In this document: in pieces, positions 10,116 to 12,648 of the stretch | Layout: each line of letters begins with the position of its first letter | Numbering within the stretch: the first letter of the stretch is position 1 | Source: Desulfobacterales bacterium | Lineage (GTDB): Bacteria > Desulfobacterota > Desulfobacteria > Desulfobacterales > YD0425bin51 | Direction of reading: 5' to 3' | NCBI GenBank assembly: GCA_015228685.1 | Contig: JADGCY010000009.1 | Span: forward strand, 167,589 to 183,244 | DNA: 15,656 bases | The notes under the pieces: generated by a model | Database searches by the model: none | The model's input: only the letters and a program-made list of their open reading frames with translations | What the model was told of the DNA's origin: nothing | Program-made: the position numbers and the translations under genes

Positions 10116-11438
10116 ATGATAAAAAAAATTTTCTCAAAAGATAATGACAGCCATGAATTTAAGCCTATTTTAGGTGAAATAGAGAGCAGTCCAGTCAATC
10201 CGATTGGACGGACTATGTTTTGGATTATTATATCAGTTATTGCCTTCTTTGGTATATGGCTTTACTTAGGAAAAGTGGATATTGTCGTGTCTTCAAGAGG
10301 TAAAATTGTACCTTATGGCGAAATAAAGACATTACAGCCGCTTGAAACAGGAATTATTAGGCATATTGGTTGTAAACCAGGGGATTACGTTGAATTAGGC
10401 CAAGTGCTTGTTGAAATTGATCCCTCAACTATAGAGCCGTCACTGGTCTCTTTCAATAACAAGCTTAAGCAAAGCGAGATTGAAGTAGAAAGACTAAGGG
10501 CAATTCTTAATGGAGGAATTTTTTCTCCTGATTCTTCAAAATATGATCCTCTTCTTCTCGATACTCAAATAGAACTTTATCACGCCTCATTAAGTGCTAT
10601 GGAAAAACTAATTGAAGCAAAACAAAATGAGGCGGCAAGTACTGATGCTCAGATAAAAACAGAATCAGCTGAGATAGCTAAGGCTAAATCTCTTCTTTTG
10701 GTAAGCATTCAGAAAGAAAAACGATTAAAAGCAGTTATTGATATTGTCTCGTCAGAAACTTATGAACAGGCTAAAAACGAGATTATAAATTATGAAAACT
10801 CGGTAAAGGTATCTGAATTTAAAATAAAAGGATTAAATCATCGTAAACAGCAGCTTTTAGAAGAAATTGAGTATCAAAAGCAAAACTTCAGACAAACCAA
10901 TCTGCAGGAACTTGTAGAAAAACAAAAACAGTTGAATGATTTCCGTGCAGAGATTGATCGAATGACATTTCTTAATAAAAAGCAGAGAATTGTATCTCCT
11001 GTCAGGGGGTATATAAATGAAGTTTTCATTACTACAATCGGCGGAGTTGTGACGCCGGCGCAAAAACTTATTTCTATAGTTCCAGCAGAATTACCATTGA
11101 TTATTGAAGCTTTGATTTTGAATCAGGACATAGGTTTTGTGAGTGAGGGAATGTCTGCAGTTATAAAAATAGATACATACCCTTTCCAGAAATATGGCAT
11201 GCTGAATGGAACAGTTAAGCATATCTCAAAAGACAGCATAATTGATGAGAAATTAGGTCCTATATATAAGGCTTATATTACCCCTATTGAGAAAAGCCTT
11301 ATAATTGATGGAAAAAAGACCTCTATCACAACAGGTTTAACAGTAACAGCAGAAGTTAAGACAGGTAAAAGGCGCATCATAGAATTTTTTATATATCCAT
11401 TGATTAAATATTTAAATGAGGGAATGAGTGTCAGATAA
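10116..11438 (+). CDS. hlyD: HlyD-family type I secretion membrane fusion (periplasmic adaptor) protein
   Basis: The 440-aa product has a single N-terminal TM 'FWIIISVIAFFGIWLYLG'. It also has a long coiled-coil middle region and a C-terminal beta-barrel-like region ('VSPVRGYINEV', 'TGLTVTAEVKTGKRRIIEFF') typical of HlyD/EmrA. Confidence 0.88.
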   Translation: MIKKIFSKDNDSHEFKPILGEIESSPVNPIGRTMFWIIISVIAFFGIWLYLGKVDIVVSSRGKIVPYGEIKTLQPLETGIIRHIGCKPGDYVELGQVLVEIDPSTIEPSLVSFNNKLKQSEIEVERLRAILNGGIFSPDSSKYDPLLLDTQIELYHASLSAMEKLIEAKQNEAASTDAQIKTESAEIAKAKSLLLVSIQKEKRLKAVIDIVSSETYEQAKNEIINYENSVKVSEFKIKGLNHRKQQLLEEIEYQKQNFRQTNLQELVEKQKQLNDFRAEIDRMTFLNKKQRIVSPVRGYINEVFITTIGGVVTPAQKLISIVPAELPLIIEALILNQDIGFVSEGMSAVIKIDTYPFQKYGMLNGTVKHISKDSIIDEKLGPIYKAYITPIEKSLIIDGKKTSITTGLTVTAEVKTGKRRIIEFFIYPLIKYLNEGMSVR

Positions 11439-12648
11439 TTTAATAAACGAAACAGACAGATATACAATAGGCAGCAAAATCTTTAGAGACTACACGCTAA
11501 AGCGTTTTATAGGTGAGAAAAACTTTGGGCGGTATTACCTTGTTGAAAATATGACAGGTATTCCTTTTGCGCTCAAGGTTATATACCCTGGTAATAATAT
11601 TGACAGACTTCTTATCCATACGATTGCTTGTCTCAGATCAAATCGTTTGGTAAGCATATTGGATTACGGCGAGACCATAGAGGGCGAAGAGTGCATGATC
11701 TTGGAATTTATGCATGAAAGCTTAGAAGATGCTTTAAGAGCCGAACCAATAAATGAAATTACAGCATGCAAATACTTTCTTGAAATTCTTCAAGGTCTAA
11801 AAGTATTAGAAAATAACCACATTGTACATAAAGATATCAAACCAACTAATCTATTTATTCTTGAGGATATTATCAAAATAGGAGATTTTAGCATTGCTGA
11901 ACGTTTTACAAATAATTATAATTCTTCTGTAGACAGATGGGCAGCAGCAGCTATTTTCTATCGTATGTTGACAGGAAAGTCTTCATTTAATAGAGATTTA
12001 GCCAATGTCCCAGAAAAATATCGTTCTTTTCTTCACAAGTGTTTTGAAAAGGATGTTAAAAATCGATATCAAAATGTTTCAGAGATGCTCCAAGCCTTCT
12101 ACGAACAGATTATAAACAAACTTAATACTCCTCTTATTTTAGAAGCAAAAAATTTTGAAGTAATTAAAAAAAAGAAACACAATTTGAGGAGTACGCCCCG
12201 CTATGTTTCTGAAGATGAATCAGAAAAAATTTTTGGTCTGACAAAGGAACGGAGACCCATCAAATATACCAAAAATGAATTTGTCGATAATGAAAACAGC
12301 ACAGTTACAGATCTATTCACAGGACTTATGTGGCAAAAATTTGGGTCTGACCAATATATGAAATATGAAGAAGTTAAAAATTATATCAAAAAAATCAACC
12401 AAGAAAAATTTGTAGGCTATGCTGATTGGAGACTGCCAACAACTGAAGAATTGATGTCATTGCTTACACCTGAAAAACAATCCAATGATCTCTTTATCAA
12501 CCCCATATTCAGCAAAGAACAGTTTTGGTGCTGGAGTTCGGATAAGATAGCTCCTGATAAAGGATGGTTTGTAATTTTTCTTCTTGGTACAGTCATATGG
12601 CTTGATTTAGATAATCTTTATTATGTTCGTGCTGTTAGGACAATTTGA
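11428..12648 (+). CDS. Fusion of a Ser/Thr protein-kinase-like domain (activation segment deleted, probably an atypical or pseudo-kinase) to a C-terminal DUF1566 / Lcl C-terminal-like domain
   Basis: The GTG start at 11428 follows the SD-like 'gaggga' (11416-11421) and overlaps the hlyD 3' end by 11 nt. The kinase subdomains are a Gly-loop remnant 'IGEKNFGRYY', subdomain II 'FALKVI' (AxK), the catalytic loop 'HKDIKPTN', subdomain VII 'IGDFS', subdomain IX 'DRWAAAAIFYRMLTG' and subdomain XI 'KDVKNRY'. The DUF1566 hallmarks are 'VTDLFTGLMWQK' (about 12322-12336), 'YADWRLPTTEEL' (about 12427-12441) and the terminal 'YVRAVR'. No TM segment or signal peptide is present. Confidence 0.75.
   Translation: MSDNLINETDRYTIGSKIFRDYTLKRFIGEKNFGRYYLVENMTGIPFALKVIYPGNNIDRLLIHTIACLRSNRLVSILDYGETIEGEECMILEFMHESLEDALRAEPINEITACKYFLEILQGLKVLENNHIVHKDIKPTNLFILEDIIKIGDFSIAERFTNNYNSSVDRWAAAAIFYRMLTGKSSFNRDLANVPEKYRSFLHKCFEKDVKNRYQNVSEMLQAFYEQIINKLNTPLILEAKNFEVIKKKKHNLRSTPRYVSEDESEKIFGLTKERRPIKYTKNEFVDNENSTVTDLFTGLMWQKFGSDQYMKYEEVKNYIKKINQEKFVGYADWRLPTTEELMSLLTPEKQSNDLFINPIFSKEQFWCWSSDKIAPDKGWFVIFLLGTVIWLDLDNLYYVRAVRTI

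Follow-up and report, generated by a model that had tools for sequence, protein, structure and literature searches.

The stretch of DNA analysed here (hereafter the window) comprises 15,656 nucleotides at 31% GC from a Desulfobacterales metagenome-assembled genome (MAG), and our subject is one of its genes, which encodes a Hanks-type kinase-like domain joined to a C-terminal DUF1566/Lcl_C module. The same protein, identical in sequence, is held in GenBank as MBF0118876.1, on a 183-kb contig whose locus tags begin with HQK79_, where it is annotated as a "DUF1566 domain-containing protein". Its kinase domain has lost two segments, the activation and P+1 loop and helix alpha-G, while the residues that handle ATP, Mg and catalysis are preserved along with the whole C-terminal module, and we will argue that such a protein may serve as a ligand-binding regulator, decoy or scaffold. 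The features of the gene and its surroundings are collected in Table 1.

Table 1. Features of the kinase-DUF1566 gene and of the genes around it, in window coordinates.
Feature	Position	Strand	Remarks
Promoter-like site	6643-6670		Before tolC
Type I secretion operon, tolC-hlyB-hlyD	6683-11438	+	Overlapping or near-abutting genes; kinase gene packed into 3' end
TolC-like OEP	6683-8002	+
HlyB-type ABC transporter	8002-10104	+	TIGR01846, 837 bits against a cut-off of 726
HlyD	10116-11438	+	TIGR01843, 315 bits against a cut-off of 209
Shine-Dalgarno-like GAGGGA	11418-11423	+	4 nt before the GTG start; read from the sequence
Whole kinase-DUF1566 open reading frame	11428-12648	+	406 residues; GTG start; TGA stop; GenBank MBF0118876.1
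Hanks-type kinase-like domain	11461-12123	+	Residues about 12-232; Pfam Pkinase, Foldseek, family alignment
Degenerate Gly-rich loop G-E-K-N-F-G	11512-11529	+	Residues 29-34; GEGSFG in relatives; second Gly is Lys
K50, ATP-anchoring Lys of ALKV (subdomain II)	11575-11577	+	Kept
Catalytic loop HKDIKPTN	11827-11850	+	D136, K138 and N141 kept; Arg of HRD replaced by Lys
DFS replacing DFG	11884-11892	+	Mg-binding D153 and spine residue F154 kept
Junction of deletion 1 (I156-A157 / E158-R159-F160)	11893-11907	+	23 residues absent (activation and P+1 loop)
Junction of deletion 2 (S185-S186-F187-N188 / R189-D190)	11980-11997	+	16 residues absent (helix alpha-G)
Lys-rich inter-domain linker	12124-12177	+	Residues 233-250; low model confidence; not hydrophobic
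C-terminal module	12178-12645	+	Residues 251-406; conserved N-terminal extension (LRxxPxxVS...RPxxY) plus DUF1566/Lcl_C; C-type-lectin-like fold
Pfam DUF1566/Lcl_C domain	12301-12639	+	Residues 292-404
Most variable part of the module	12568-12621	+	Residues 381-398; from 131 relatives; presumed ligand-binding face; unusually hydrophobic here
Terminator-like hairpin, then T-rich tail	12694-12709	+	46 nt past the stop of the kinase gene; weak evidence
LprI/DUF1311-containing protein	12974-14092	+	372 residues; signal-like hydrophobic N-terminus; lysozyme-inhibitor-like N-terminal domain
Open reading frame without Pfam match	14128-14937	+	269 residues
FrpC-like open reading frame	15076-15594	+	172 residues; Ca-dependent self-processing ("clip-and-link") module

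A preliminary description made from the letters of the DNA had proposed this combination of domains, and both assignments hold: the product of the gene carries exactly two Pfam domains above their curated cut-offs, Pkinase (PF00069; 84.5 bits against 31.7, E = 1e-23) and Lcl_C/DUF1566 (PF07603; 77.1 bits against 34.9, E = 1.7e-21), and structure models support both folds. The AlphaFold model of the whole protein has a mean pLDDT (the model's own per-residue confidence) of 83, and a Foldseek search with its kinase part, which has the bilobal kinase fold, matched Mps1, Chk2 and CDK2 at E of about 1e-13. Sequence searches with the kinase domain likewise bring up canonical kinases (CDK2, ERK3, PAK1, PknB-type) and not RIO or Bud32. 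A scan of the protein sequence found no transmembrane-like stretch, in support of the earlier statement that no membrane segment separates the two domains. The motifs that the preliminary description quoted lie where it placed them, and the alignment with relatives shows the GxKxxG loop and the DFS motif of the window protein.

The Pkinase profile match is broken into two stretches, the first of which covers profile positions 1-151 of 263, and alignments to solved kinases with phmmer behave in the same way, stopping after DFSIAERF and restarting at NNYNSSVDRWAA, with about 22 residues of ERK3 or CDK2 skipped. In the relatives this part of the protein reads DFGTARYTSGxxxxxSxxxGTxHYMAPE(R/C)F, against DFSIA directly followed by ERF in the window protein, where 13 residues separate DFS from subdomain IX. 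This short spacing was the central claim of the preliminary description, and misalignment of a loop of normal length does not account for it, since 23 residues are missing that are present in all 27 aligned relatives, each of which has a full DFG-to-APE activation segment of about 25 residues. A further claim, that the APE motif is gone together with the activation and P+1 loop, stands for the loop itself but apparently not for the glutamate: E158 aligns with the APE glutamate, and R213, the arginine of subdomain XI with which that glutamate usually forms a salt bridge, does not vary in the family. With both E158 and R213 kept, the loop has been removed between its two anchor points.

A second deletion had been overlooked. 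Past SSFN the relatives continue with DGxxxxxIFGAIMxxEP, a stretch that corresponds to helix alpha-G by comparison with PKA, and in the window protein these 16 residues are absent; the AlphaFold model accordingly passes from alpha-F (168-182) to a next helix at 196-205 with no helix between. Two elements that define Hanks kinases are therefore lacking, the DFG-to-APE segment with its P+1 loop (subdomain VIII) and helix alpha-G (subdomain X).

Both segments are missing from the window protein alone in an alignment of 28 sequences (the window protein and its 27 relatives). A regular-expression survey of 172 retrieved proteins found A/S-P-E about 25 residues past DFG in nearly every kinase-bearing relative; the few without a literal APE have a full-length segment wherever they could be aligned, which leaves the window protein as the only one in which the segment is missing. 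In a neighbour-joining tree it is nested within the family on a somewhat long branch, and the more distant members (P0014, P0022, P0023, P0063 and P0095) all have full loops. This position, taken with the full loops of the outgroups, indicates that the loss of the loop and of alpha-G is secondary and private to one protein, and the short loop is not a trait of the fusion architecture. No orthologue sharing the deletions was found: nothing closer than about 47% identity was found among 1.84 billion cluster representatives, a scan of metagenome contigs with the window protein returned no relative, and a look-up of contigs holding the exact protein returned no record.

What remains of the kinase domain is both well kept and unusually altered. 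The residues K50, H134, D136, K138, N141, D153, F154, E158, D169, W171 and R213 are retained, with K50, D136, N141 and D153 falling in columns that are invariant or nearly so in the family, and all ten strictly invariant columns are intact (E93, H134, D136, N141, K150, D153, F154, E158, D169 and R213). The alterations are GEGSFG to GEKNFG, by which the loop departs from the GxGxxG of Hanks kinases, HRD to HKD, DFG to DFS, and the consensus ME(K/R)RGxE to IDRLLIH. Within this last motif the consensus glutamate at position 59 is an aspartate and consensus Glu64 is a histidine, and the alpha-C glutamate is probably one or the other of these two. If a pseudokinase is defined by loss of the VAIK lysine, the HRD aspartate or the DFG aspartate, the window protein does not qualify, as all three are present. 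Of the earlier alternative, "pseudokinase or minimal non-canonical kinase scaffold", the second half holds as a description; the presence of K50, D136 and D153 speaks against "pseudokinase".

We quantified this departure in 25 members, over the 74 kinase columns in which the relatives show a conservation of 85% or more. The window protein deviates at 19 (26%), the highest value of the 25, against a median of about 7%. Deletion gaps account for five of the 19; of the 14 substitutions that remain, about 9 are conservative (L/I, M/L, Y/F, E/D, R/K, V/A). Over the retained columns its identity to relatives is 48%, where the relatives show 54% among themselves, and this figure, together with the retention of every invariant residue, argues for a kinase domain that is folded and under constraint.

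The C-terminal module presents a different picture. Its Lcl_C match runs over the full length of the profile (positions 2-117 of 117), residues 251-406 are modelled at a pLDDT of 95, and the module keeps 29 of the 30 columns that 131 of its relatives conserve, the single deviation being equal to the family median. The asymmetry between the most deviant kinase domain of the family (19/74) and an entirely typical module (1/30) supports a role as regulator or decoy. The modelled fold is that of the solved Lcl C-terminal domain, described as C-type-lectin-like (PMC11162425), and its structural matches include a Bdellovibrio fibre-tip domain, a Bacteroides fimbrial protein, the retroelement-diversified TvpA, FGE-sulfatase-type enzymes and many animal C-type lectins. 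A sequence search of the module against the PDB gave no match, so that the kinship with Lcl is visible by profile and fold only. Toward the end of the lectin fold, in roughly its last 20 residues, the conserved W380, V382, F384 and G387 are interleaved with highly variable positions, and residues 381-398 are presumed from this pattern to form the ligand-binding face. This variable stretch and its counterpart in relatives resemble the variable regions of retroelement-diversified lectin folds. As a possible target of a diversity-generating retroelement it was rejected: positions 12500-12648 have no repeat within the 15.6-kb window, and no reverse transcriptase was matched among the scanned open reading frames of the window, although a distant template is still conceivable.

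An exhaustive HMMER search of the cluster representatives returned 364 proteins at E < 1e-30, most of which share the C-terminal module alone at about 45-55% identity. The closest kinase relatives, from metagenomes and MAGs, are about 38-53% identical over the aligned regions, the best being 47% identical over nearly the full length. In the 101 of the 364 that we scanned for Pfam families we counted Lcl_C in 96, Pkinase in 25, TIR_2 in 13, TIR in 8 (the TIR_2 and TIR counts possibly overlap), Caspase in 7, PEGA in 6 and FGE-sulfatase in 4, with trypsin, EAD8, T5orf172 and others once each. DUF1566 had been introduced as a domain usual in surface or secreted proteins, but the module counted here is not confined to these: judged by its partners, it is a promiscuous C-type-lectin-fold C-terminal unit that is mostly joined to domains with signalling or effector functions (TIR, caspase, kinase). 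As nearly all of the 25 Pkinase proteins also carry Lcl_C, the kinase-DUF1566 fusion is, by profile, a sizeable, fairly common and unnamed family of otherwise normal kinases. Our literature search found no paper describing the combination itself; in the databases it is not rare.

Further members were sought in GTDB genomes with the family alignment. The scan was keyed on the generic motif [LIV]H[RM]D[IV]KPxN, which brought up many unrelated kinases and is blind to HKD, and it added two kinase-DUF1566 loci only, from a Pseudomonadota MAG (L007) and a Desulfovibrionales MAG (L008). The same type of kinase domain also occurs without DUF1566, fused to TPR repeats (P0015) or to an FtsZ/tubulin domain (P0016), or alone (P0017), and one relative (P0029) is a tandem kinase-kinase-DUF1566 protein. 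Gene contexts are varied. At L001 (8829-12825) a PP2C gene is followed by two tandem kinase-DUF1566 paralogues; L087 (1-10269) packs three paralogues into 10 kb together with a 1052-residue protein that matches FHA faintly; and at both L007 and L008 an open reading frame resembling a calcineurin-type metallophosphatase, judged from its translation with no profile scan, lies directly upstream. The other loci of intact kinase-DUF1566 genes show no conserved context. The family has degenerated independently on at least one other occasion, in P0036 (locus L088, 4693-6060), which has HSN for HRD and DSA for DFG and so has lost the catalytic aspartate while its activation loop is of full length. The gene of P0036 adjoins transposase genes. 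PADLOC gave nothing beyond generic similarity between kinase domains (mad6, PD-T4-6, PglW), which is no evidence for defence.

How might a kinase be of use without the elements that dock its substrates? Ordinary members of the family look like complete RD-type kinases with a normal activation segment, and the phosphatase genes or tandem paralogue arrays that often lie beside them form the pattern to be expected of a ligand-controlled phosphorylation switch that is reset by phosphatases. In the window protein the two in-frame deletions have stripped the C-lobe of both of its protein-substrate docking elements, leaving in place the ATP/Mg and catalytic residues, the hydrophobic spine, the anchors E158-R213 and D169, and the lectin module in its entirety. 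Such a protein should still fold and still bind the ligand of its module, and possibly nucleotide too, but it could neither be activated through phosphorylation of the loop nor dock a peptide through the P+1 loop and alpha-G. It might then compete with active relatives for the same ligand or associate with them through the lectin module. We therefore favour, with moderate confidence, the explanation that the window protein is a ligand-binding, non-phosphorylating regulator, decoy or scaffold that does not act as a conventional protein kinase; the loss of protein-kinase activity, the binding of a ligand and the regulatory role are each what we infer from the sequence. Inactive enzyme copies are considered likely decoys in comparable systems (Kaur et al., PMC7159879).

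Several observations weigh against this explanation. All of the catalytic residues are present, so that activity could persist. The case is built on one MAG sequence that has no orthologues and whose closest relative stands at about 47% identity. The junction of the first deletion is modelled at lower confidence (pLDDT about 68-80), and the 31% GC composition may by itself account for some of the substitutions (R to K, L to I, G to K). The explanation, furthermore, does not account for the packing of the gene into a type I secretion operon.

It is possible, if on balance unlikely, that the window protein is still an enzyme, nucleotide-dependent and minimal, that acts as an ATPase switch or phosphorylates a small or otherwise atypical substrate. 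In that case it would be the lectin module that brings in the substrate or sets the localisation. The complete set K50, D136, K138, N141 and D153 is retained with the spine residues H134 and F154, and the deletions coincide with structural elements and spare the E158-R213 anchor, which looks more like tolerated remodelling than random decay. Over the retained columns the identity to relatives is still about 48%. Set against this are the lysine in place of the second glycine of the Gly-rich loop and the serine in place of the DFG glycine, since changes at these two glycines usually weaken nucleotide handling, and the replacement of the conserved Glu59 by Asp and of consensus Glu64 by His, one of them probably the alpha-C glutamate. 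RIO-type and Bud32 kinases, which have no activation loop and work as ATPases (PMC4381065), offer an analogy for such an enzyme, but beyond the common fold the window protein has no sequence similarity to either, and there are no orthologues to show that the design is maintained. The more specific version, in which an active minimised Hanks kinase serves as a lectin-guided ATPase-type switch or a kinase of non-protein substrates and is co-expressed with the type I secretion system, strikes us as slightly more doubtful again. If it were true, a canonical bacterial kinase family would have arrived at the RIO/Bud32 design anew, recently and by a route that can be traced.

If the kinase half had instead become dispensable, the window gene could be in early decay, its reading frame still open because the deletions are in frame and recent. 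This would fit a protein with the highest deviation of its family at conserved kinase columns, with two deletions and several changed motifs, a singleton without orthologues whose gene lies outside the phosphatase-linked context of some relatives. Stop codons, however, make up about 8% of random codons at 31% GC by our own estimate from composition, and a frame of 406 codons is very unlikely to stay open in such DNA without selection. The conservative character of about 9 of the 14 substitutions at conserved columns, the ten invariant residues, a perfectly typical lectin half, a good ribosome-binding site and the tight packing of the gene in an operon all speak for a gene in use, and we regard decay as improbable.

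The operon itself raises the question of whether the protein is tied to type I secretion, as exported cargo (a secreted adhesin of the lectin type, which is what DUF1566 proteins frequently are) or as a cytoplasmic accessory or regulator of secretion. The kinase gene has the same orientation as tolC, hlyB and hlyD, and its GTG start overlaps the hlyD stop (TAA, 11436-11438) by 11 nt; the four genes lie between the promoter-like site before tolC and the terminator-like hairpin past the kinase gene, a hairpin that carries little weight, as the scan of the window found 3 such sites where 4.1 are expected by chance. Third-position GC is alike in the four (0.24-0.29, against 0.14-0.19 in the upstream genes at 8-6456, which are radC, pgk, dedA, GGDEF, substrate-binding protein and rlpA genes), which hints at a history of the secretion operon and kinase gene distinct from that of their neighbours. 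Lcl itself, moreover, is a secreted adhesin (PMC11162425). Yet the protein has none of the marks of a type I substrate: a scan of its sequence found no RTX motif (GGxGx[DN]), and its C-terminus is modelled at a pLDDT above 90 as the last strand of the folded domain rather than as a free, unstructured signal. The transporter is of the HlyB type, and like RTX exporters of that type it has an N-terminal C39-like domain without Cys, here in its first 28 residues. No kinase gene follows hlyD in the three nearest tolC-hlyB-hlyD operons (L090-L092, with HlyD 56-58% identical), which end there, and no type I secretion system occurs at any of the 10 family loci examined; a conserved linkage thus showed neither from the kinase side nor from the HlyD side. 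Ahead of one of the three operons stands a gene whose product has at least 5117 residues.

A better candidate for the cargo lies 2.4 kb downstream of the kinase gene, where the open reading frame at 15076-15594 matches the module of the Neisseria RTX protein FrpC (PDB 6SJW/6SJX, E = 3.8e-27) and contains the Asp-Pro cleavage site RIDPIVIDLDGDGIET. It shares its frame with the open reading frame at 14128-14937, from which it is split by a single in-frame TAA (14935-14937) and a Thr-rich linker, and it has no RTX repeats ahead of the stop at 15594, which suggests that the FrpC-like protein has been interrupted or truncated. It is probably this protein, rather than the kinase protein, that is the cargo of the adjacent system, and a functional tie between the kinase-DUF1566 protein and secretion seems to us very improbable. 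Between the kinase gene and the FrpC-like gene lies that of the LprI/DUF1311 protein, of which the remaining 270 residues or so have no family match. Upstream of the operon, the gene of a PAS-GGDEF protein (2783-4630, + strand), if read from its listed TTG start, shares 71 nt with the end of the DedA-family gene (2158-2853), and its true start is probably the internal Met at MQIKFHK...

That the deletions are an assembly or binning artefact is the least probable explanation: the source is a MAG and the tandem paralogues of the family could confuse assemblers, but the gaps of 69 and 48 nt are exact multiples of three placed at structural elements, the flanks are collinear with relatives, and the many point differences mark a genuinely diverged copy and not a collapsed hybrid.

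The protein represents one degenerate copy in its family and an unusual, private variation on a known architectural theme; as such it is a curiosity and not a new kind of system. If it is functional, it amounts to a natural experiment in which a canonical Ser/Thr kinase has been deprived of its docking surface for protein substrates and left with its catalytic machinery and fold anchors, and the close intact relatives allow a side-by-side comparison that would bear on the origin of pseudokinases and minimal kinases. Of wider use, perhaps, is what the family shows, a DUF1566 lectin-fold module shuffled onto kinase, TIR, caspase and other effector domains in proteins without evident signal peptide or transmembrane segment: DUF1566 is not solely a surface-adhesin domain, and the published sensor-plus-effector pattern extends from lectin folds of the FGE-sulfatase type to those of the Lcl_C type.

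Of the proteins to which the window protein can be compared, the nearest are the intact Pkinase-Lcl_C proteins (for example P0002-P0013, P0028 and P0029), unnamed and mostly from metagenomes or MAGs. They share with it the order of domains, a YxxGxxIF N-terminal lead-in, the module with its N-terminal extension and the lack of a signal peptide or transmembrane segment. They have GxGxxG, HRD, DFG, a 25-residue DFG-to-APE segment and alpha-G, all of which the window protein has lost or altered, and the genes of several adjoin phosphatase genes or form tandem arrays; the window gene, by contrast, ends a type I secretion operon. Like pseudokinases, of which P0036 with its HSN and DSA is a clear case within the family, the window protein sets a degenerate kinase domain beside an intact interaction domain; unlike them, it keeps all three residues of the triad. 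With RIO and Bud32 it shares the kinase fold, the catalytic Lys/Asp/Asp, the lack of an activation loop and a reduced substrate-binding C-lobe. These kinases are largely ATPases or switches (PMC4381065), and their minimal design is ancient and family-wide, whereas the window protein came by its own recently, through secondary loss within a Hanks family that is otherwise canonical.

Lcl of Legionella pneumophila (PDB 8Q4E), whose identity to the window module is only about 21%, is a trimeric adhesin with a collagen stalk that is secreted and whose basic surface binds sulphated glycosaminoglycans, and it is for Lcl alone that trimerisation and glycan binding are known within DUF1566/Lcl_C (PMC11162425). 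The window protein, in contrast, lacks both collagen repeats and a secretion signal, and the variable face of its module is hydrophobic.

The broadest likeness is to the conflict systems of multicellular bacteria, in which kinase, TIR, caspase or NTPase domains carry a C-terminal lectin fold of the FGE-sulfatase or "FGS" type, in many cases with diversification by a retroelement (Kaur et al. 2020, PMC7159879; Dore et al. 2024, PMC10907252; Wu et al. 2018, PMC5758913). There are differences: the lectin fold here is of the DUF1566/Lcl_C type and not the FGE-sulfatase type, the window has no reverse transcriptase or template repeat, and neither the window nor the listed loci of relatives contain vWA-MoxR, STAND or GTPase core partners. 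In the DUF1566 family too, however, a lectin-fold binder at the extreme C-terminus follows an N-terminal domain with an effector or signalling function, the partners are drawn from the same pool (Pkinase, TIR, caspase, trypsin, EAD), it is the C-terminal end of the lectin fold that bears the variable face, and inactive enzyme copies have been noted in both. By this analogy, the shuffling of kinase, TIR and caspase domains with a lectin fold, accompanied by expansion of paralogues and occasional inactive copies, matches the pattern published for FGE-sulfatase-type lectin folds, both in the targets of diversity-generating retroelements and in conflict systems.

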